Positions 1 to 7,616 of a stretch of DNA of 7,616 bases are shown piece after piece. Where the stretch lies: positions 1 through 7,616 of IMG/VR virus record IMGVR_UViG_2695420643_000016; one strand, 5' to 3'. Each line of letters starts with the position of its first letter. Position 1 is the first letter of the stretch. Position numbers and translations under genes: made by a program. Under the pieces are notes generated by a model. The model was not told the DNA's origin. It saw nothing but the letters and a program-made list of their open reading frames with translations, and ran no database searches. Source of the DNA: a virus. Its lineage: Duplodnaviria > Heunggongvirae > Uroviricota > Caudoviricetes.

Positions 1-96
1 GCAGAAGCAGAAAAAGCTTATTATGCTTCCATCGGAAACGATGATCTGGCAGCCTGAGTTCACAGATAAAATACTCTCCAGGAAACCCGGGGCGGT

Positions 97-204
97 TCAC
101 TGGCAGGCCTGAATCACAAACTGGCAGGCCACAATCTTTCCGCGCACAACATCACGGGCATACTGATTGGCAGCATTTACGTTGGGGTAAGATTTCCGGC
201 TCAT
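97..204 (-). pseudogene. N-terminal fragment of a large terminase (TerL-like), 35 codons ending in an in-frame TGA; probable truncated or disrupted terL
   Basis: ATG at 202..204 overlaps the terS stop (ATGA). Translation is [35 protein letters not shown] then TGA at 97..99. The Y-A-x-D-V-x-x-G-K-I-x-A-C ... A-C-Q pattern matches my recollection of the N-terminus of PF03354/COG4626 large terminases, where R-x-L-x-D-L normally follows. No frame in 1..96 continues that motif. A single-base misreading on my side cannot be excluded. Confidence 0.35.
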
Positions 205-695
205 GACTCGATGATTTTCAGAAACGGGTTAGTGGCTTTCTTCTGCCCCGCCAGGCCAATCAGACGCTGGCGGCTGCTGGGGTCGAGTCCGAGCATTGCC
301 CCCGTGCTGCTCATCTCGGACTCCTGTTCTTTTTTGGCGGTCAGCTCCGGATTTTTGACCCTGCCGCCCATTGCACCGGTGATGGTGTTGCCCTGTATGG
401 CAATATTTTTCACGGCACGTCGCCAGAACTCATAGGCCACGCACCACCGCTCAAGCACCGCGAGGTCAGTCACGCACAACAGGCCCTGACCGCAGAGTTC
501 TTTGGTTGTCAGTTGCCACATGATCGTGGCGAGAGGGAGATTTTCTTCTGCGAACCACTCCGGTGGCTCAACACCTTTGATGGGCGTAAAAACAGGTTCA
601 TCTTTATTCAGGGCTCGCTTGCCGGGGTTTCCGGCCAGCGCCTTGCGCGCCGTTGGCTTGGGGCGACGCCCGGAACGCCCCGCCGTTCCAGCCAT
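201..695 (-). CDS. terminase small subunit (P27-like family)
   Basis: Track ORF 201..704. Product [27 protein letters not shown]... resembles P27-family TerS as I recall it. The track start is GTG at 704; the in-frame ATG at 693..695 is preceded by AGGAG and is the likelier start. It sits immediately downstream of the HNH gene and is coupled to the next ORF by an ATGA overlap. Confidence 0.8.
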
Positions 696-745
696 ATGCG
701 GCACTCCTGGTTAAATTTCATTTTTCGCGGGTATAAAAAAACGAT

Positions 746-794
746 GGGGCGGGCAGTCCGGAAGACGTCAGGTCACAGGGATTTGACCCGCCCC
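746..794. other. candidate cos (cohesive end) region between the HNH and terS genes
   Basis: G-rich inverted repeat GGGGCGGG (746..753) and CCCGCCCC (787..794) flank a 33-bp core containing a GACGTC palindrome, preceded by an A7 tract. The GGGGCGGGCAGTCC string loosely resembles the lambda-type cohesive end GGGCGGCGACCT. The gene order HNH-cos-terS is the known HK97-type packaging arrangement. Confidence 0.3.
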
Positions 795-820
795 TCCCCT
801 CTTGCAGTGGGAACTGGTTC

Positions 821-1171
821 TTACTTCAGCCGTTCACGGGCCGTCTTCGCCTTATGACACGGCCAGCACAGGCTCTGCAGATTGCTGTCGGCATCAGTGC
901 CGCCATGCGCTTTAGGGATGATGTGGTCAACGGTTTTCGCCTCGCGCACCACACCGGCACGCAAACACAACTGACACAGGCCTTTGTCACGCTTTAGTAC
1001 ACGCCCCCGGATAACATCCCATTTCGAACCATAACCGCGCTGGTGTCGGGACTGGCCTGGCTTGTATTGCTTCCAGCCCTCGCTTTTGTGGCTTTCGCAA
1101 TAACCTGACGGGTCAGTCGTGGTATGGCGGCAGCCGCGAACTCGGCAGGCTTTTGGGGTTCGTGGTGGCAT
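821..1171 (-). CDS. HNH homing-type endonuclease, phage packaging-associated
   Basis: Track ORF 821..1270 begins with TTG; the in-frame ATG at 1169..1171 (MPPRTPKACRVRGCRH...) is preceded by GGAG at 5-nt spacing. The product has CxxC...C...H and DHIIPKAHGG...N...CWPCH motifs typical of HNH nucleases. It lies directly upstream of terS. Confidence 0.8.
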   Translation of the reverse strand: MPPRTPKACRVRGCRHTTTDPSGYCESHKSEGWKQYKPGQSRHQRGYGSKWDVIRGRVLKRDKGLCQLCLRAGVVREAKTVDHIIPKAHGGTDADSNLQSLCWPCHKAKTARERLK

Positions 1172-1292
1172 ATGTACTCCAATGAAGAAGCTACCGACAT
1201 AGCCTCCTCCATTCGTCGTGAAACTATTTTCATCTACCCAGTAATGAATTCTTTGAAGAGTCGAGATCAATACAACTCACTGATGGGAGAGG

Positions 1293-1314
1293 CTTGCCTC
1301 ACGCGTGAGGCAAG
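1293..1314. repeat. perfect 22-bp palindrome CTTGCCTCACGCGTGAGGCAAG (possible stem-loop or protein-binding site)
   Basis: Read directly from the sequence. It lies in the roughly 290-bp gap between the Rz1 stop and the HNH start. The T-rich flank TTTCCTGTTTGATTT is on the plus-strand side only, so it is not a canonical terminator for the minus-strand late transcript. Confidence 0.5.
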
Positions 1315-1394
1315 TTTCCTGTTTGATTTACTGGACAGTATAGGGGGGCAGAATGCCTTCCTCACTCGAATAACATCAATTAAGGAGGTTCAAC

Positions 1395-1517
1395 ATGTTT
1401 CATTCCACAAGTCATCAGGCTGTAATTATGGTAGCATCAGTTTGTGCCACATACCTTTTCCGCTTCACTTTGAGTCTGATTCATTTCTACCTGACCGGCT
1501 CGCCTCTATCTTTCTAA
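1395..1517 (+). CDS. hypothetical 40-aa hydrophobic peptide (possible small membrane protein)
   Basis: A consensus Shine-Dalgarno TAAGGAGGT sits 6 nt upstream of ATG 1395. Translation is MFHSTSHQAVIMVASVCATYLFRFTLSLIHFYLTGSPLSF with one predicted transmembrane span. It is in the opposite-strand position that the bor moron occupies in lambda. It overlaps the 3' end of Rz1 antisense and no convincing promoter was found. Confidence 0.2.
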   Translation: MFHSTSHQAVIMVASVCATYLFRFTLSLIHFYLTGSPLSF

Positions 1518-1740
1518 TCCCCGCTTTGTCAATATTGCATTGTCCCAACGCTGACAACAGACTCACATTCAACTCCAGACTGGCACCATACGTCAGCGGA
1601 TTGGGTATAAACGGTACAGGAGTATCAGAAGTCAGGCTGGCTGGCAGTGGTGCCACCGGAGCGCTCACGTAAACCGTTCGCGAATTTCCGCAACCGGTCA
1701 GCAGCGACAGCAGGCACAGGACGTGAAGCACAATCATCAT
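1465..1740 (-). CDS. Rz1: o-spanin (Rz1-like outer-membrane lipoprotein), overlapped architecture
   Basis: Tandem ATG-ATG at 1735..1740 in the +1 frame inside Rz. Product MMIVLHVLCLLSLLTGC... has a lipoprotein signal with lipobox LLTG-C followed by a proline-rich mature region. The frame stays open 160 bp past the Rz stop. Confidence 0.55.
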   Translation of the reverse strand: MMIVLHVLCLLSLLTGCGNSRTVYVSAPVAPLPASLTSDTPVPFIPNPLTYGASLELNVSLLSALGQCNIDKAGIRKIEASRSGRNESDSK

Positions 1741-2017
1741 CCGCAACAGCCACTTTGATATCTTCCTGGGTTCTCTGTGACTCCAGTGTGATCTGCTGTT
1801 TTGCATGCTGGTTAGCCTCCAGAACTGTATTGACGATTTGCAGTGATTGCAGGACGTTATTGGTAATGACAGTTGCCGATTTGGCATTTTGTACAGCCTC
1901 ATCAGCACGTTTCTTTTCGTGCTGATATTTGCTGTAGTAGTGGTTGGCAGACCAGATGAAAGAACCGATGACAGTAAAGAAGAATGCAGCGATAACCAAC
2001 TTATAGCTCAACTTCAT
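1625..2017 (-). CDS. Rz: i-spanin (Rz-like), N-terminal TM anchor plus coiled-coil periplasmic domain
   Basis: 130-aa ORF directly after the endolysin, overlapping its 3' end by 17 nt. N-terminal hydrophobic segment LVIAAFFFTVIGSFIW followed by a charged, helix-prone sequence. Rz1 is embedded or overlapped in the +1 frame. Confidence 0.75.
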   Translation of the reverse strand: MKLSYKLVIAAFFFTVIGSFIWSANHYYSKYQHEKKRADEAVQNAKSATVITNNVLQSLQIVNTVLEANQHAKQQITLESQRTQEDIKVAVADDDCASRPVPAVAADRLRKFANGLRERSGGTTASQPDF

Positions 2018-2477
2018 TTACCACCCCACCAGCCTCTTTAAACCGGGCAATCAGATCACCGATTTTATGTTCATACTGACCGTAACCAGCACCCGGCAAT
2101 GAAGCCCAGATATTGCTGCAACGGTCGATTGCCTGACGGATATCACCGCGATCAATCATCGGCAAAGCGCCACGCTCTTTAATCTGTTGCAATGCCACAG
2201 CGTCCTGACTTTTGGGAGAGAAGTCTTTCAGGCCAAGCTGATTACGGTAGGCATCCCACCAACGGGAAAGAAGCTGGTAACGTCCGGCGGCTGTTGATTT
2301 GAGTTTGGGGTTTAGCGTGACAAGTTTGCGAGGGTGATCGGAGTAATCAGTAAACATTTCACCACCGACAATAACATCATAACCGTGGTTACGTGTCGGT
2401 TGTCGCCCGTTATCCGTTCCTTCTGACCATGCAACCATATCCAGGAAAGCTTTACGCTGGGAATTTAGTACCTGCAT
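2001..2477 (-). CDS. R: endolysin, lambda R-type lytic transglycosylase
   Basis: 158-aa product MQVLNSQRKAFLDMVAWSEGTDNGRQPTRNHGYDVIVGGEMFTDYSDHPRKLVTLNPKLKS... is near-identical over most of its length to phage lambda R as I recall it, including the catalytic E in the WSEGTD motif. It sits between the holin and Rz. Confidence 0.92.
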   Translation of the reverse strand: MQVLNSQRKAFLDMVAWSEGTDNGRQPTRNHGYDVIVGGEMFTDYSDHPRKLVTLNPKLKSTAAGRYQLLSRWWDAYRNQLGLKDFSPKSQDAVALQQIKERGALPMIDRGDIRQAIDRCSNIWASLPGAGYGQYEHKIGDLIARFKEAGGVVNEVEL

Positions 2478-2480
2478 AAA

Positions 2481-2807
2481 TTACTCCTTAGAGCCACCAA
2501 ACTTATTACCGATTACTCTCATTGCAGCCCCACGAATAGCATCGACCCCGATCAGCCCAACGCCGCCACCAATGGCAACAGAAAGAGATTTAGGCCATCC
2601 GACATACTCAAGAGCGGATGCAAAAGTCAGCGTCAGAGCACCACAGAGCAAAATCTCGAGCGTTTTTCGTTTCCAGCCACCACCACCGCCAAAATAGGCA
2701 ATGCGCAAGCCAGCCATAACGATCGACATAATCACTGCGCCCAGCGGTGTGTCTCCACGCCACCAGCTCTGGACCAACTCCAGCCAGGTATTTGGGTTAT
2801 GAGGCAT
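2481..2807 (-). CDS. holin (class I-like, three predicted TM segments)
   Basis: 108-aa ORF immediately upstream of the endolysin with a 3-nt gap. Three hydrophobic stretches (LGAVIMSIVMAGLRIAYF, LEILLCGALTLTFASALEYV, LSVAIGGGVGLIGVDAI) and a charged C-terminus. The size matches lambda S. Confidence 0.7.
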   Translation of the reverse strand: MPHNPNTWLELVQSWWRGDTPLGAVIMSIVMAGLRIAYFGGGGGWKRKTLEILLCGALTLTFASALEYVGWPKSLSVAIGGGVGLIGVDAIRGAAMRVIGNKFGGSKE

Positions 2808-2959
2808 TTGTAGTTATCTCTCACCTCGCTGATACAGCAGGTGCAAATTGAGGGAACATCATGTACCGCAAATCAGAAGCGGAAACATCAAAGAAGCCGA
2901 ACCGATGGAGAACTGCGGAATAGGCCAGGACCAACGAATCCCCAGCCACAGAAACGACA

Positions 2960-2981
2960 AAACCCGCTCGACGGCGGGTTT
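2960..2981 (-). terminator. tR'-like intrinsic terminator in the late leader upstream of the holin
   Basis: On the minus strand, AAACCCGC-CGUCGA-GCGGGUUU (8-bp stem, 6-nt loop) is followed by UGUCGUUUCUG, a hairpin plus U-rich tract. It lies about 150 nt upstream of the holin start, where lambdoid phages place tR' between pR' and S. Confidence 0.4.
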
Positions 2982-3103
2982 AAGCTGTGTGGCGAAGTAA
3001 CCACTCTTAACAGATTACAATGTTTTTTGCGGAACGCGCTAATGATTTCCTCTTTTTTTTGTTGTATTTTTCACACGGTTGCTAAAATTATTTCGGATCG
3101 ATA
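2982..3103 (-). promoter_or_regulatory. inferred late promoter (pR') and Q-utilisation region, exact elements unresolved
   Basis: Inferred from position between the tR'-like hairpin and the cassette. The only -10-like hexamer on the minus strand is TGTAAT (plus coordinates 3015..3020) with a weak -35. No element could be assigned with confidence. Confidence 0.25.
3059..3088 (+). promoter_or_regulatory. candidate sigma70 promoter for the plus-strand cassette
   Basis: TTGTTG (3059..3064), 18-bp spacer, TAAAAT (3083..3088), about 15 nt upstream of ATG 3104. It is embedded in a T-rich tract that includes a T8 homopolymer at 3053..3060. The leader would be very short and has a weak SD. Confidence 0.25.
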
Positions 3104-4045
3104 ATGAGTACAGAAAATAAGAATAAAACCAGGCGAGTGAGAGTTGGTTTTTTCACTGGTAATGGAAGCAAAAAAGATGGCACATCTGCTGCAAAACTAG
3201 CCTTTGAGCAAATGACCACAGCAGATACTGTAACTTTTCCAATAACTTACACAACAGACACCCCAAATCGAGGGTTAAAGTTAGTTATTCTTCAAAAAGA
3301 TACCACACTGCAATGTTACTTTGGTTACGTATCGTGGAGAAGGGAATGCCTACTACCGTTCATCGAGGATGCTACAGGTAGTGAGAGAACAATTCCTTTA
3401 AATGATAAAGATTCTGTAGTTGAAAGAACATATTTTATCTATTACTACGAAACGGACTTATTAGCTATGACCCTCAACCATATAGGGCCCAAAGTAAATG
3501 ATCTGGCATTCATTTTGTATAACAAAACTGATTTAAAAAGCGTCACTTTTGAAGCCATTTGGAAACAAGAGAGCATGAAGGAACTGCTTGAGGACGGAAA
3601 TATCCTACGTAGTTTCGATCTTATAGTTGCTGCTCCAAGAAACTTTAACAAAGCTAATTATAAGATTAAAAACCCTTTAGCTAATGAAATTATTGACATG
3701 GTTGTTGGTATGGGCGGGTCGCATCTAAGATTAAATATGCGAGGTCGGATTCGCCCGAAAAAACAAGGATTTAACTATCTAAAAACTTCTGTCACCGATG
3801 CTATTAAGGAACTACTTGAACTTTTTCCAAAAGGTTCTGGAGGTCTAAAAATTAAAAAAATTGATGTAACAGAGCCATCCAATAGAACGCCCAAAAGTCT
3901 ACTTGACCAAGTATTGGTCAGTACAAAGACAATCATTGTCAAAAGCGGTTATCCATCCGATTCTGATATCAGAACGGCGATGATATCTGCTAAAATTGAT
4001 AACGCGAACTATCTTGCACAGTATGAGCTCGCTAGCAGAGACTAA
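3104..4045 (+). CDS. hypothetical 313-aa soluble protein, first gene of the AT-rich cassette; candidate sensor component of a RexA/RexB-like two-gene defence module
   Basis: Long ORF on the strand opposite the phage late operon. Hand-counted GC is about 33-37% versus about 58% in a flanking phage gene. No signal peptide or TM segment, and no Walker, HxH, DEAD or PD-(D/E)xK motif that I could recognise. It is followed after 21 nt by a membrane-protein gene. Confidence 0.8.
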   Translation: MSTENKNKTRRVRVGFFTGNGSKKDGTSAAKLAFEQMTTADTVTFPITYTTDTPNRGLKLVILQKDTTLQCYFGYVSWRRECLLPFIEDATGSERTIPLNDKDSVVERTYFIYYYETDLLAMTLNHIGPKVNDLAFILYNKTDLKSVTFEAIWKQESMKELLEDGNILRSFDLIVAAPRNFNKANYKIKNPLANEIIDMVVGMGGSHLRLNMRGRIRPKKQGFNYLKTSVTDAIKELLELFPKGSGGLKIKKIDVTEPSNRTPKSLLDQVLVSTKTIIVKSGYPSDSDIRTAMISAKIDNANYLAQYELASRD

Positions 4046-4066
4046 TAACCAAGCATGGAGGACACA

Positions 4067-4516
4067 ATGAGAGAATTAGCCACTTTTCTCTGGAAATGCG
4101 TCCTCTGGATTCTGTTGACCTATGCAGCGACAAAACTGTTTAAACCGATGAAGCATGCTGACGTACTCACAACAGCGGGGGTGCTCTCGACTATATCAGG
4201 CATCCTGTTTGGTTTTGTTCTGGCTGCAATATCTATATTTAGTAGTGCAAACAGCGATAAGGAAGGAGCAATTAATGCCCTTAAGCAAAACAACGTGTTA
4301 CCAACTCTGGTAAATAGATTACTTTCAACAGGGTTAACTCTCATCGTCGCGTGTATATTTCCATTGATAGCGATGTTTCTACCTGATGATGTTATTGTTG
4401 CGGGCAAACCTATTGATTTCCTGTTCATACTGTTAGGCTTATCCTCCCTTATAATTTCGCTATATACCTTCGGAAGGTGTTGGTTAGTGTTACGAAAAAT
4501 CTTCCCCCACTTGTGA
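4067..4516 (+). CDS. hypothetical 149-aa inner-membrane protein with four predicted TM helices; candidate effector of the cassette
   Basis: Track ORF 4055..4516. The ATG at 4067 is preceded by GGAGG at 5-nt spacing; the ATG at 4055 has no SD and would add MEDT. Four hydrophobic segments of about 20 aa each (FLWKCVLWILLTYAATKLF, VLSTISGILFGFVLAAISIF, LLSTGLTLIVACIFPLIAMFL, IDFLFILLGLSSLIISLYTF). Same AT-rich composition as the upstream gene. Confidence 0.8.
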   Translation: MRELATFLWKCVLWILLTYAATKLFKPMKHADVLTTAGVLSTISGILFGFVLAAISIFSSANSDKEGAINALKQNNVLPTLVNRLLSTGLTLIVACIFPLIAMFLPDDVIVAGKPIDFLFILLGLSSLIISLYTFGRCWLVLRKIFPHL

Positions 4517-4545
4517 CAGGTTGGCCTCATATGGGGCCAACCTGT
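4516..4545. repeat. stem-loop (11-bp perfect stem, 8-nt loop) at the convergent junction between the cassette and the Q gene
   Basis: ACAGGTTGGCC (4516..4526) pairs with GGCCAACCTGT (4535..4545). It begins at the stop codon of the membrane-protein gene and ends 7 nt before the Q stop. No U-tract on either strand. Confidence 0.45.
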
Positions 4546-4551
4546 GCAACC

Positions 4552-4917
4552 CTAAGCGTCCATTTCAAGGTTAACATCCAACATTGAAAGGCAACCATCA
4601 ATAAATCCTTCGGCTAGTTGTATTTCTATGCGTACCAATTTTTCATCCTTTCCACGCACCTTTGCAATCTTACGCTTGGATATTCTGTATAAATAATGTG
4701 CCACAAGCAGCGAGTGCTCATCTGGCTTTTTTTGCTTTAGACGAGCAAGACAACCTTCAATAATTAATGCATCACTATCTGAACAAGCCTGACGTGTTTT
4801 GCTTGTGTAGGGAAGAAGCCCCTTAAACCCAGCAGCTATAGGCGAATAGTCTACTCCAGAACTATCACTCGCCGCCCATGCTCCCCAACGCTCCAGAACC
4901 ATCTGAATATCACGCAT
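4552..4917 (-). CDS. late-gene antiterminator Q, short QuuD-like family
   Basis: Product MRDIQMVLERWGAWAA...AAGFKGL...LEMDA matches my recollection of the DLP12 Q homologue QuuD in its N-terminus and overall pattern. The track start is TTG at 4920; the ATG at 4915..4917 is preceded by GGAG. It sits between the nin-like genes and the lysis cassette. Confidence 0.7.
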   Translation of the reverse strand: MRDIQMVLERWGAWAASDSSGVDYSPIAAGFKGLLPYTSKTRQACSDSDALIIEGCLARLKQKKPDEHSLLVAHYLYRISKRKIAKVRGKDEKLVRIEIQLAEGFIDGCLSMLDVNLEMDA

Positions 4918-4934
4918 CAACTTTCTCCACCAAA

Positions 4935-5930
4935 TCAGGCCAACACCCCAATCGCCAGCGCGCGATCGATAAAACGAAATATCAGCTCCAGTTGGGAGCC
5001 ATACTTCTCTTCAAATGCCACGGTATCCGCATGCAGCTCGTCGTGATGCTTTCTGCACAAAGGCAACACAAAGAGGTCATGCGCTTTTGTACCCATTCCA
5101 CCCTGACCGTGACCTATCAGGTGGTGGGGATCATCAGCAGGCTTTCCACAACATGCACACGGCTGTGTCTTAACCCAGCGCGTGTACTTTTCATTAACCC
5201 AGCGGCGGCGTTTTGGTCGTAACATAAAAGACTCCAGCGACTCCGGATCCACTTTCAGCGCCAGCACCTTTTTCGCTTTATCCTGGATAATGCTGGTGGC
5301 AGGAACCGAAGGCACAAGGTCACTTTCCCGGGTGACCGCCTGCACAACAGGCTTCGGTAATCTCAGTGCCTTACGGGCTGCACTTTCCGGTAAGGCATCC
5401 GCCAGGTCATTACGAATCAGCCACCAGCACAGTTCCGGTATTGTCACAACGTGACTGTCATCAAAACCGAGATCCCGACGCACAACAGACAACACCCAGC
5501 GGGCACAGTTATCCGTTGCCATTGATTCCAGCCGTTCCGTGAACTGATCGCGCAGCTGGTTATCGCAGTGCCAGCACAAACGGATTGCGCCCGGAGCGTG
5601 TCGCATTGTTGTCATGTTCTCGCTGTGCCAGTCGGAATGAGGCCACTGGCAGCCTTTTTCACGAAGTAACCAGCTTTCAAGACATTCCACGCCACCAGCA
5701 CGACGGATCACTGCCTCATTGCGGAATACGGCCCGAACGGCAGGATCATCCGCCAGCGGTTGTGATGCCGCCGGAACGGCACCACTGGCGAAAGATGAAT
5801 AACGTTCCGGCTCAGGCTCCAGCAGGACACGCCCCTGCATAAACAGGGGCATCAACTCTGAACCTGGCCTGAACAATACGATCCCCATACGCGGGGCAAT
5901 TTCAGGGGTCAGTAGTGCTCTCACGGTCAC
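4935..5930 (-). CDS. DUF968-like prophage protein with C-terminal zinc-ribbon/HNH-like motif
   Basis: 331-aa ORF directly upstream of Q, the position YdfU (DUF968) occupies next to the Q gene in the Qin prophage. C-terminal CACCGK...DPHH...GGMG.K...LPLCRKHHDELH motif. The track start is GTG, 1 nt after the stop of the upstream gene. Confidence 0.55.
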   Translation of the reverse strand: MTVRALLTPEIAPRMGIVLFRPGSELMPLFMQGRVLLEPEPERYSSFASGAVPAASQPLADDPAVRAVFRNEAVIRRAGGVECLESWLLREKGCQWPHSDWHSENMTTMRHAPGAIRLCWHCDNQLRDQFTERLESMATDNCARWVLSVVRRDLGFDDSHVVTIPELCWWLIRNDLADALPESAARKALRLPKPVVQAVTRESDLVPSVPATSIIQDKAKKVLALKVDPESLESFMLRPKRRRWVNEKYTRWVKTQPCACCGKPADDPHHLIGHGQGGMGTKAHDLFVLPLCRKHHDELHADTVAFEEKYGSQLELIFRFIDRALAIGVLA

Positions 5931-5931
5931 C

Positions 5932-6741
5932 TCAATGAACGGTATCGAGCAGCTTTAACAGCTCAGGGAATCGGGATTCGAAGAAATGCGGCTGCGTCTC
6001 GCGCGGATTTGCGGGACTGGTGATGTTCTTGCCGAACATGCAGCCTTTCGCTGTCAGCGACCAGAATTTTTTGATGTTGTTAATCGCGGTACGGCTGTAT
6101 CGTTCGCGCTGCTCGACGATCCCCAGCTTCACCATCTGGTGATATGCCTGATTAGCCGTCAGGCGGATACCATACTGTTTCAGCAGTGCACTCAGTGACA
6201 GCGTAGGGCGACTTGAGCCATCGTGTGCATCAGCAGGAGCATCAATGGCATAGCGCGGTGCCAGATTCGGTAAGCCAACAGCCTCCTGGAGTTTCTGACA
6301 GGCCCCAAGCACTGAAGAGTTAGACAGGTTTAACTCCCTGCGCATAAAGTCCAGCAGAATCACTCCAGCCTGCATCTTGTCAGCAGCCTGCCCGGATAAT
6401 TTTTCCGGTGCGCTGGTTACCATATCGAAAGTACGGATCACCTTCAGATGGAATGACGGGCTGATCCACATTGCATAGGCATACACCAGTTCTTTGCAGA
6501 CATACGTCCCCTGGTTATTTCCGCCATTAATGACGCTAACTGGTTGATTTTGTTCCAGAGGCGGAATTCCACCCTCGGTGAAAAGTTGTTCAATCAATTC
6601 ACAGGTTTGCTTATTGGAGAGCCAGTATTTCGGGCGGTTTTTTTGTTCTCCCCCGGCTGCCCTGTGCAGATCGTTCAGGCTGTAACGCCCATAAGCATCA
6701 CGACGAACTTCAATACCATCAATGACCATCAGATTATTCAT
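5932..6741 (-). CDS. KilA-N domain protein with a C-terminal domain of unknown function
   Basis: N-terminal region MNNLMVIDGIEVRRDAYGRYSLNDLHRAAGG...KYWLSNKQT...VCKELVYAYAMWISPSFHLKVI resembles the KilA-N DNA-binding domain. The track start at 6774 has no SD and overlaps rusA; the ATG at 6739..6741 is preceded by AGGAGA and is preferred. Confidence 0.75.
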   Translation of the reverse strand: MNNLMVIDGIEVRRDAYGRYSLNDLHRAAGGEQKNRPKYWLSNKQTCELIEQLFTEGGIPPLEQNQPVSVINGGNNQGTYVCKELVYAYAMWISPSFHLKVIRTFDMVTSAPEKLSGQAADKMQAGVILLDFMRRELNLSNSSVLGACQKLQEAVGLPNLAPRYAIDAPADAHDGSSRPTLSLSALLKQYGIRLTANQAYHQMVKLGIVEQRERYSRTAINNIKKFWSLTAKGCMFGKNITSPANPRETQPHFFESRFPELLKLLDTVH

Positions 6742-6760
6742 ACTTCGTTTCTCCTCTTGA

Positions 6761-7150
6761 TCAGGCGGCTGCACCCGCCGTTTTCTCGTACTTACTGATA
6801 GTGATCTCGACCTTCCCTTCCGGGATAACCGGTCCCCACTCCACCAGCATTCTTTTCACCTGGCTGTCGTCTTCCCACACACCCGCGTGAGTCAGGGCGT
6901 CAAACAGCGCCTTGTTATAGTTGTCCAGATCGCGGATCCGGTTATCCGGAGGAAACAACACGATCTCCACTGAAGCAGGTGCTGACGTTGGTTTCGGCAG
7001 ACGACGTAACTGCTCAACTATTGCTGTGCACGCCGCACTCTGGAATTTTCGCCCCGCCGCGCTTATCAGGCTCTTACCAGCAAACGCCCCTTTGTTGGGG
7101 TGTCGCCAGTACGTGTTCACGCTGGGCGGAAAAGGCAGGATCAGCTTCAT
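6761..7150 (-). CDS. rusA: Holliday junction resolvase RusA
   Basis: 129-aa product with the RusA signature region DLDNYNKALFDALTHAGVWEDDSQV, which resembles E. coli RusA (DLDN..KA.FDALT.AG.W.DD.QV). Typical nin-region position. Its start overlaps the stop of the upstream gene (ATGA). Confidence 0.85.
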   Translation of the reverse strand: MKLILPFPPSVNTYWRHPNKGAFAGKSLISAAGRKFQSAACTAIVEQLRRLPKPTSAPASVEIVLFPPDNRIRDLDNYNKALFDALTHAGVWEDDSQVKRMLVEWGPVIPEGKVEITISKYEKTAGAAA

Positions 7151-7473
7151 GCTTTCAGGCCTCTCTCATGTAACCAGTGGGTTGCACGCAGCCTTGCGTT
7201 TTCCTCACCGGCAAGCAGTGAGCGGATAATCCCGACCGCCTCGCTGTCGTCGTCCTTCACCGCGGTATGAAGCGTTATCCCCCGGGCCACGCCACGCTTT
7301 ATCGTGATGACGCCTTTTTTCTCCAGTGCGCGAAGATGCTCCACCGCTGCATTCACTGAACGGTATCCCAGCATGGTTGCCACCTCCTGATTGGTTGGCG
7401 GGAAGCCACGTTCTTTCTGGTAAGAAATCAGCATATCCAGCACCTGCTGCTGGCATTGAGTTAATGTCGTCAT
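7147..7473 (-). CDS. LexA-family N-terminal DNA-binding domain protein (winged helix), no peptidase domain
   Basis: Product MTTLTQCQQQVLDMLISYQKERGFPPTNQEVATMLGYRSVNAAVEHLRALEKKGVITI...ARGI parallels the LexA N-terminal domain (LT.RQ.EV...I......G.PPT..EIA..LG..S.NAA.EHL.AL..KG.I). At 108 aa it is too short to carry the S24 peptidase domain. Confidence 0.8.
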   Translation of the reverse strand: MTTLTQCQQQVLDMLISYQKERGFPPTNQEVATMLGYRSVNAAVEHLRALEKKGVITIKRGVARGITLHTAVKDDDSEAVGIIRSLLAGEENARLRATHWLHERGLKA

Positions 7474-7616
7474 GCCGCCATCTCCCTGACCAGTTTTTCT
7501 GCCTGCTGGCGAACCTGCGCCAGAAACGCCTCACCACATGCCTCAAGTTCATCGCGCCCGATGTAGCTGATTGCCGGTCCCTTCCAGGTCTTGTCGAAAA
7601 CAGCAATAGCACCAGC
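7470..7616 (-). CDS. 3' end of a gene of unknown function running off the right edge of the window
   Basis: Open frame from the window edge, translated C-terminus ...AGAIAVFDKTWKGPAISYIGRDELEACGEAFLAQVRQQAEKLVREMAA, ending at TGA 7470..7472, which overlaps the next gene's ATG (ATGA). It is in a different frame from the spurious Arg-rich track ORF 7205..7612. Confidence 0.5.
   Translation of the reverse strand, partial: AGAIAVFDKTWKGPAISYIGRDELEACGEAFLAQVRQQAEKLVREMAA

Follow-up and report, generated by a model that had tools for sequence, protein, structure and literature searches.

The described systems closest to the locus reported here are the late regions of phages lambda and 21, the Escherichia coli K-12 prophage DLP12, the SfIV moron and the cargo of Stx phages. 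In phage 21, the DNA site of the antiterminator Q21 consists of two direct TGAGCA repeats, examined through mutation of the C:G pairs at -21 and -13 (PMC6606751). A 21-type late promoter that we rebuilt from IMG/VR carries TTGACA, a 17-nt spacer with the two TGAGCA repeats, and AACACT, followed by TAAGCT at +2 to +7 and a hairpin with a T-run near +50. The DLP12 lysis operon is reported to be controlled by the prophage's own Q-type antiterminator (as cited in PMC7918800). In SfIV, the DNA from Q to the lysis genes has been described as a moron of low G+C content with its own start and stop signals (PMC3851460). The cargo of Stx phages is found downstream of the late promoter and terminator, has the same orientation and is transcribed together with the late genes (PMC8065619). 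A layout in which cargo separates Q from the late switch is already known, from DLP12 and from the SfIV moron.

We analyzed a 7,616-nt stretch of a Caudoviricetes genome (IMG/VR record IMGVR_UViG_2695420643_000016, positions 1 to 7,616), the whole of which we call the window. We propose that its minus-strand positions 3060-2950 in all probability constitute a lambdoid Q-dependent late regulatory block, and that a reverse-oriented two-gene cassette has come to lie between this block and the final codons of Q. The genes of the window on either side of the cassette and block are as follows.

7147-7473, minus strand, LexA-like gene of the lambdoid operon
6761-7150, minus strand, RusA gene of the same operon
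5932-6774, minus strand, gene for a KilA-N protein, same operon
4935-5930, minus strand, gene for a DUF968 protein, same operon
4552-4920, minus strand, antiterminator Q of the Q21/QuuD family, 122 aa (PF06530 Phage_antitermQ, E=7.7e-52; PHROG 79)
2481-2807, minus strand, lambda-S-type holin S, the first late gene (PF05106, E=5.7e-25)
2001-2477, minus strand, predicted lysozyme (from the glycoside hydrolase family 24 annotation in LD22-1)
1625-2017, minus strand, Rz-like ORF (from its position and a sub-threshold DUF2570 match)
821-1270, minus strand, HNH endonuclease (Pfam match, within the set PF05106/PF01844/PF05119 shared out among holin, HNH endonuclease and terminase)
201-704, minus strand, small terminase (Pfam match, same set)

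The window Q protein matches the Q21 structures 6P18/6JNX distantly (phmmer, E=0.002). Two features of a lambdoid late unit, a PF06530 Q gene and an intrinsic terminator ahead of the late genes, are found here; a third feature of the family, direct adjacency to Q, is absent from the window block, and the DNA that intervenes is made up of these elements.

3104-4516, plus strand, two-gene cargo cassette, opposite to the late operon (from its ORFs)
3104-4045, plus strand, first cassette ORF, 313 aa, between Q and holin
4055-4516, plus strand, second cassette ORF, 153 aa, between Q and holin
4516-4545, between the convergent cassette and Q genes, 11-bp G+C-rich hairpin (read from the sequence)

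The cassette proteins belong to PHROG 7651 and PHROG 8552, phage families without an assigned function. Neither has a Pfam match above the curated threshold or a PADLOC match, the 153-aa protein showing a sub-threshold resemblance to DUF4064 (18.8 bits against a cutoff of 32.1), and a scan of genome contigs confirmed no relatives of the 313-aa protein. BLASTP detected no similarity between the cassette proteins and the SfII cargo (PDC-M53A type) or the NA37-type cargo protein. The cassette has two characteristics of a moron, a composition unlike that of its flanks and presence or absence between related phages: its G+C content is ~37% against ~50% in the flanking DNA, and the homologous insertion site in relatives is either empty or filled with other cargo. 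On the Q side, homology with insert-free Q genes stops after GAAATGGAC, near Q codon 120, and the stop codon of Q comes from each cargo type itself; on the other side, homology restarts with A-rich DNA immediately ahead of the block. The hairpin lies 6 nt from the Q stop codon (4552-4554) and has no T-run on either strand; our terminator scan did not report it. Just past the Q stop, where the window has this hairpin, most of the other cargo types examined have a different one. We presume that the hairpin at 4516-4545 is an insulator or terminator owned by the cargo, which would close off the cassette from the convergent Q gene.

The elements that we assign to the late side of the block, in the direction of late transcription, are listed below.

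3042-3037, minus strand, weak -35-like element TTAGCG, overlapping the 9-bp palindrome
3037-3029, minus strand, 9-bp palindrome and candidate Q-binding element, centered at -28, 16 nt upstream of the -10
3017-3012, minus strand, late -10 hexamer TAATCT (from its conservation pattern)
3008-2992, minus strand, invariant initial region AAGAGT-GGTTACTTCGC, candidate sigma-dependent pause element
3005, minus strand, late transcription start, A (by homology with a K-12 Cappable-seq start)
2981-2950, minus strand, intrinsic terminator of the tR' type (stem at 2981-2960, then a U-rich tail)
2949-2808, minus strand, leader from the terminator to the holin start codon (from similarity to SfII and SfIV)

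The assignment of the start and the -10 draws on two kinds of comparison. Among 39 unique upstream variants, the second base of the hexamer is A and the sixth is T in every case and the first is T in 37, and the inner three bases vary freely, which is the pattern expected of a -10 element. Cappable-seq of MG1655 reports a start at U00096.2 576,452 on the plus strand (PMC4782308, supplement 1). This start is the A of GTTAAG-A-GTGG, 7 nt past TATGCT, which corresponds by homology to window position 3005. The position was transferred through the homologous locus L003 with a +1 coordinate offset, which we checked on 13 start sites, finding a purine at 12 and an A at -11 in 10. The start signal at 576,452 is weak (relative read score 1.7) and belongs to a homologue rather than to this prophage, in which we expect the block to be active as well. 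A different assignment, with TAnnnT as the pause element and CAAAAA as the -10, was rejected because the K-12 start lies 7 nt past TAnnnT. An amplicon described as '-121 to +650' (PMC7918800) gave no start site for DLP12; its primers place it at about -645 to +122 of the essD ATG, and it therefore holds no start-site information.

The initial region AAGAGT-GGTTACTTCGC resembles the pause region of the lambda late promoter, AACGAT-GGGTTAATTCGC, with 10 of 11 positions identical in GGTTAnTTCGC. Its core is largely kept in a set of diverged blocks (L020-L027) that were found without it as a probe. AAGAGT straddles the start (-3 to +3), and there is no canonical -10-like hexamer downstream of +1; the region is named here as a candidate pause element. 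Downstream, the terminator stem at 2981-2960 has 8 pairs, 5 of them G-C, and is followed by TGTCGTTTCT. It is the sole convincing minus-strand terminator in a scan of 2400-5000, the other four matches being stems of 5-6 pairs inside coding sequence, and it lies 1571 nt from the Q stop. A 70-nt leader fold has a predicted energy of -20.3 kcal/mol (z = -2.3). Relatives carry a terminator in the same position, built on other stem sequences with a T-run after each. The segment that contains the leader from the terminator to the holin is 93-96% identical in SfII and SfIV, phages with the same holin. A further leader hairpin proposed by RNAalifold (TTAAG/CTTAA plus GTGG/CCAC) was dropped, since its covariation is not significant (1 compensatory pair, 113 of 500 shuffles) and its 5' arm would begin ahead of the start.

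Transcription from 3005 to this terminator gives an expected RNA of ~50-55 nt. In the mechanism that we favor, RNA polymerase would stop at the terminator when Q is absent, releasing an RNA of ~50 nt. Q would load at the promoter-proximal complex and carry polymerase past the terminator into the late genes, reaching holin, lysozyme, Rz, HNH endonuclease and terminase by read-through. As Q is a diffusible protein, a separation of 1.5 kb between its gene and the block should not prevent loading.

To place the layout in its family, we scanned IMG/VR with the invariant 20-mer TGTTAAGAGTGGTTACTTCG, which occurs in more than 119 viral contigs, and located Q by tblastn, which left 118 loci with a Q gene. 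The end of Q and the block are 40 nt apart in five of these loci and 67 nt apart in one; in the remaining 112 the distance is 625-2952 nt, with more than 20 length classes. Inserts in 112 of 118 loci make the separated layout the usual state of this Q/late-promoter family. Of 27 representative inserts, 26 have their main ORFs directed against the late operon, and the block always stands ahead of the lysis genes. In MLI108K3 (L001), the homologous block begins ~10 nt past the Q stop, the textbook position, and in SfII and cdtI it sits between a reverse-oriented two-gene insert and the late/lysis genes. Window positions 2959-3027 match 2500 of 5426 complete E. coli genomes. Other inserts at the site include the PADLOC candidates PDC-M68A, PDC-S20 and PDC-M53A, and further ones encode an OLD-like ATPase with a C5 methylase, an NYN-domain protein or NA37-domain proteins; each of these adjoins a second large ORF. 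This range of inserts indicates that the site behaves as a hot spot for cargo and defense genes, and cargo such as the cassette described here likely serves an accessory or defense function expressed in the lysogen.

These results bear on an initial annotation of the same DNA, which had noticed how close the Q stop comes to the cassette hairpin, had singled out 2960-2981 on the minus strand as the only tR'-like terminator, far from Q, and had concluded that the cassette splits the late regulatory region from Q. The hairpin distance and the terminator scan bear out the first two points, and the textbook position of the block in MLI108K3 agrees with the third. Its view of the layout as a departure from the norm is not supported, given the inserts in most surveyed loci and the precedents in DLP12 and SfIV (PMC3851460). 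The layout is common in E. coli prophages, and the finding is correct but ordinary.

One indication that Q acts at the block comes from the 9-bp palindrome, the type of which follows the Q subtype completely over many insert-length classes and does not follow the cargo. The form GCGGTCCGC accompanies the Qwin/Qmli types in 43 of 44 loci (at least 11 insert-length classes), the exception being the window itself; GCGTACGC accompanies the Qsf type of SfII in 19 of 19 loci (10 insert-length classes), and TTTACGTACGTAA accompanies QuuD in 46 of 46. More distant Q proteins go with other palindromes. We therefore treat 3037-3029 as a candidate Q-binding site on the strength of this covariation, part of which could reflect shared ancestry. 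The window carries GCGTTCCGC where its relatives have GCGGTCCGC: position 3034 (plus strand) is A in the window alone and C in LD22-1 and in every recovered relative with the same Q type, and over 3020-3140 all 73 complete cassette-bearing genomes differ from the window. Because the A at 3034 breaks the palindrome, Q responsiveness may be reduced here.

The same comparisons weigh on the possibility that the block is mainly a stand-alone small-RNA gene, whose constitutive RNA of ~50 nt acts in trans in lysogens, as with StxS or other prophage small RNAs beside holin genes, and whose link to Q and late control is secondary or absent. Between Q subtypes with protein sequences up to 50% different, the transcribed part, GUGGUUACUUCGCCACACAGCUUAA, hardly varies, the homologous start is detected in uninduced K-12, and prophage small RNAs are known directly upstream of holin/lysozyme operons (bioRxiv 10.64898/2026.05.13.724894). 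Against such a role, insert-free loci have the block directly past the Q stop, the block always precedes lysis genes, and the upstream palindrome changes with the Q subtype. Moreover, a search of the whole window against all Rfam families (E<=1) returned no match, the sequence is absent from the Pas small-RNA paper and its supplement, and a 16-mer from the block was not found in the literature searched. We consider this explanation improbable as the main role of the block, although it is the best of the alternatives, and a small-RNA role and a late-control role are not mutually exclusive. StxS has been reported to arise by termination of transcription from a late promoter. The anti-sRNAs AgvB and AsxR were set aside as counterparts, as they occupy a different site, downstream of the late promoter.

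Late regulation by Q at a promoter within the block is also to be set against the idea that late or lysis transcription starts further upstream, at an RpoE-dependent or in-cargo promoter, leaving the block as a terminator and antitermination site only. The block does match the sigma-70 consensus poorly. A consensus scan found nothing in 2808-3103, and with a home-made sigma-70 matrix (background of 160 window segments, mean 6.7, sd 2.0) the late promoter scores 4.0 and the neighboring TGTAAT 5.7, against the background mean of 6.7 and 14.6 for lambda pR'. K-12 has a further, much stronger start at 576,081 (score 90), ~370 nt upstream of the block and directed toward essD. Rueggeberg et al. (2015) are said to have attributed the DLP12 lysis promoter to RpoE. 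A later paper, citing that study, names RpoE as one of the factors that control the DLP12 lysis operon (PMC7918800); inspection of the block by eye found no convincing RpoE-type -35/-10 motifs. In favor of a start within the block, the DNA upstream of it is wholly different in each cargo type and is Q coding sequence in insert-free loci, so that a shared upstream promoter is not possible. SfII and cdtI, which carry different cargo, are complete phage genomes as deposited. The K-12 start lies 7 nt past the conserved -10, and the best late-strand matrix score upstream of the block in the window is 6.2. A start further upstream is, in our assessment, unlikely, and somewhat more so than a small-RNA gene.

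On the cassette side, two further elements lie in the DNA shared with the late promoter.

3059-3088, plus strand, best cassette promoter candidate: TTGTTG (3059-3064), an 18-nt spacer and an extended -10, TGcTAAAAT (3080-3088)
3053-3060, T8 tract (A8 on the late strand), at -48 to -55 of the late promoter (read from the sequence)

The cassette most likely has its own promoter at 3059-3088, a prediction in which the candidate scores 12.2, a value that equals the highest among the 160 background segments and makes it the best promoter-like site of the window on the cassette strand. Its predicted start is near 3095, 9 nt ahead of the ATG at 3104. A weaker plus-strand candidate, ATGATT (3042-3047)-17-TATTTT (3065-3070), has a score of 8.1 and counterparts in several diverged cassette homologues. 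The stronger candidate and the late promoter would stand back to back, with predicted starts ~90 bp apart; the core hexamers of the two are separate, and A/T-rich upstream DNA is shared between them. The predicted late and cassette transcripts do not overlap, and being divergent they cannot collide, which weakens the suggestion of the initial annotation that late transcription and cassette expression could interfere. Any coupling between late and cassette transcription would thus act through competition for the shared upstream DNA or through supercoiling. Of the proposal in the initial annotation that one region holds both promoters, the placement of the late promoter in 2982-3103 is supported by the K-12 start that maps to 3005, and that of the cassette promoter by prediction.

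The T8 tract, the coordinates of which we could confirm, sits where an A-rich, UP-like upstream element is expected, and its last two bases are also the first two of the cassette -35. Almost every cargo context has an A-tract ahead of the late promoter, and in insert-free loci such tracts belong to the C-terminal codons of Q; this recurrence across cargo types and in Q codons fits an upstream element of the late promoter better than a phase switch. The initial annotation had suggested slipped-strand variation at the tract, a suggestion that the comparison of tract lengths does not support. Among the matches listed for the 73 complete cassette-bearing E. coli genomes, 60 of 60 align over 121 of 121 nt without an indel. 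In 25 other sequences, some of which share contigs, the tract is T8 in 23, T7 in L026 and T9 in L155, both exceptions being draft or metagenome contigs. Homopolymer errors are common in draft and metagenome assemblies, and an 8-base homopolymer is short for frequent slippage. That T8 is a phase-variation switch, turning the cassette on and off by altering the spacer of ATGATT-17-TATTTT (3042-3070), is very unlikely: the tract does fall within the 17-nt spacer of this weaker candidate, which has its counterparts in diverged homologues, and the two length variants exist, but the tract itself is missing from diverged homologues, its length is otherwise constant, and it lies at or upstream of the -35 of the stronger candidate, the spacing of which is unchanged by tract length. 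Taken as a whole, the earlier interpretation is partly supported.

Our analysis supplies exact coordinates of the late switch (start, -10, candidate Q site and terminator) for a common E. coli prophage family, in which cargo between Q and the late switch is the rule and not an oddity. For prophage annotation, this means looking for the late promoter next to the holin, not next to Q. Knowledge of Q antitermination itself is unchanged; the Q-subtype-specific palindrome and the private change at 3034 are the points worth noting. Taken together, these observations raise a more speculative possibility, which we put forward tentatively and hold to be rather doubtful: that the junction of QuuD-type Q and the late promoter is a dedicated, orientation-biased cargo site, that short Q proteins may use a -35 palindrome with a compressed pause element, and that the C-to-A change at 3034 would weaken lysis control. 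If so, numerous inserts that are unrelated to one another, and of which several are known or candidate anti-phage systems, would stand back to back with the late promoter, each bringing its own promoter and a Q-facing hairpin, and the start-straddling pause element would represent a loading geometry unlike those of lambda Q and Q21.

Compared with the late region of lambda, the block has the same order of elements, with a -35, a Q site (here a candidate) in or near the spacer, a -10, AAnnnT followed by G's, GGTTAnTTCGC, a terminator and the holin, and a short terminated RNA is expected in both when Q is absent. Unlike in lambda, Q here belongs to PF06530 and not to the lambda Q family, 1.5 kb separates the block from Q where lambda has the two side by side, and the leader is ~50 nt against 194 nt. 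AAnnnT lies 3 nt past the -10, where it straddles the start, as opposed to 6 nt in lambda, and the promoter consensus is much weaker. Phage 21 shares with the window a Q of the same Pfam family, PF06530, a DNA site (here a candidate) in the region of the -35/-10 spacer and a ~50-nt leader that ends in a hairpin and T-run. It differs in having direct repeats closer to the -10, where the window has a candidate 9-bp palindrome centered at -28, and in its consensus TTGACA -35 and clear pause element TAAGCT, neither of which is present here.

Stx phages resemble this prophage in carrying cargo between Q and holin in a lambdoid phage. Their cargo differs in position and direction, as the cassette here precedes the late promoter, runs the opposite way and for that reason has to use a promoter of its own. 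An Stx-like downstream site does occur at the same block in L001, where it holds a methylase and tRNAs. SfII and cdtI are alike in having low-G+C cargo opposite to the late operon with the same junctions as here. The cdtI cargo is homologous to the cassette, whereas SfII has a different two-gene cargo with a PADLOC PDC-M53A match and SfIV has an IS1 element with its cargo. In K-12, DLP12 (quuD-(IS5) nmpC-essD) differs from the window in its porin and IS5 cargo, in a Q of another subtype with the palindrome TTTACGTACGTAAA, in the class of its holin and in being a defective prophage. It nevertheless carries the block with 93% identity over 2959-3027, between nmpC, a porin gene in reverse orientation, and the holin gene essD, 2.9 kb from quuD.

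The junction between the antiterminator gene Q (4552-4920, minus strand) and the late promoter, where the window's two-gene cassette lies, looks like a hot spot for defence genes and other cargo. Comparison of window positions 3104-4516 with the same site in eight related loci (L004, L005, L035, L066, L111, L132, L038 and L144) contributed to a count, among relatives, of more than 20 different inserts at this junction, including the following.

Inserts at the Q/late-promoter junction in relatives
PDC-M68A (HNH), by PADLOC
PDC-S20 (KAP NTPase-like), by PADLOC
PDC-M53A, in the Shigella phage SfII, by PADLOC
An OLD-like ATPase with a C5 DNA methylase
An NYN-domain protein
NA37-domain proteins, each adjoining a second large ORF
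The porin gene nmpC

The window's own cassette (3104-4516, plus strand) gave no PADLOC match and no Pfam match above threshold. It converges with Q on an 11-bp, G+C-rich hairpin (4516-4545) that has no T-run on either strand and that begins on the final base of the cassette's stop codon; of the other cargo types examined, most have a hairpin of their own at the same position. The cargo junction falls within the last codons of Q, and each cargo therefore gives Q a different C-terminal tail: the window protein ends in LEMDA (4552-4566), and that of the insert-free locus L001 in LEMDDWLLKK.

On the other side of the cassette lies the conserved late regulatory region (3060-2950, minus strand). A useful reference layout for promoters of the Q21 family is provided by the phage-21-type late promoter, which is readable in full in L159 and in some 120 further IMG/VR loci: TTGACA, 17 nt of spacer containing the two TGAGCA repeats, AACACT and a start A, followed by TAAGCT at +2 to +7 and a hairpin with T7 near +50. 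The window has A at position 3034 (plus strand), where strain LD22-1 and all recovered relatives with this Q type have C; of the 73 complete E. coli genomes in which the cassette is present, not one has exactly the window's sequence across 3020-3140. The A disrupts one arm of a Q-subtype-specific palindrome, GCGGTCCGC, and lysis in the window's prophage might be under weaker Q control as a result. Upstream of the late promoter, the T8 tract (3053-3060) appears as T7 in L026 and as T9 in L155, in promoter regions that otherwise match. One variant comes from a draft-genome viral contig and the other from a metagenome contig; rare slippage or errors in sequencing could account for them.

In K-12 DLP12 (L003), a strong Cappable-seq start (score 90) adjoins the start of nmpC at about 4418, U00096.2 position 576,081 on the plus strand. 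Preceded by a TATTAT -10 element and directed toward essD, it has the conserved block some 370 nt downstream of it, and might be the DLP12 lysis promoter of others' studies.

The insert-free locus L001, where the block adjoins Q, carries other cargo at its positions 1176-2875, downstream of the terminator: a small ORF, a gene for a DNA methyltransferase and three tRNA genes, oriented as the late genes. That is the moron site of the Stx type, which gives the Q/late-promoter family two alternative places for cargo.
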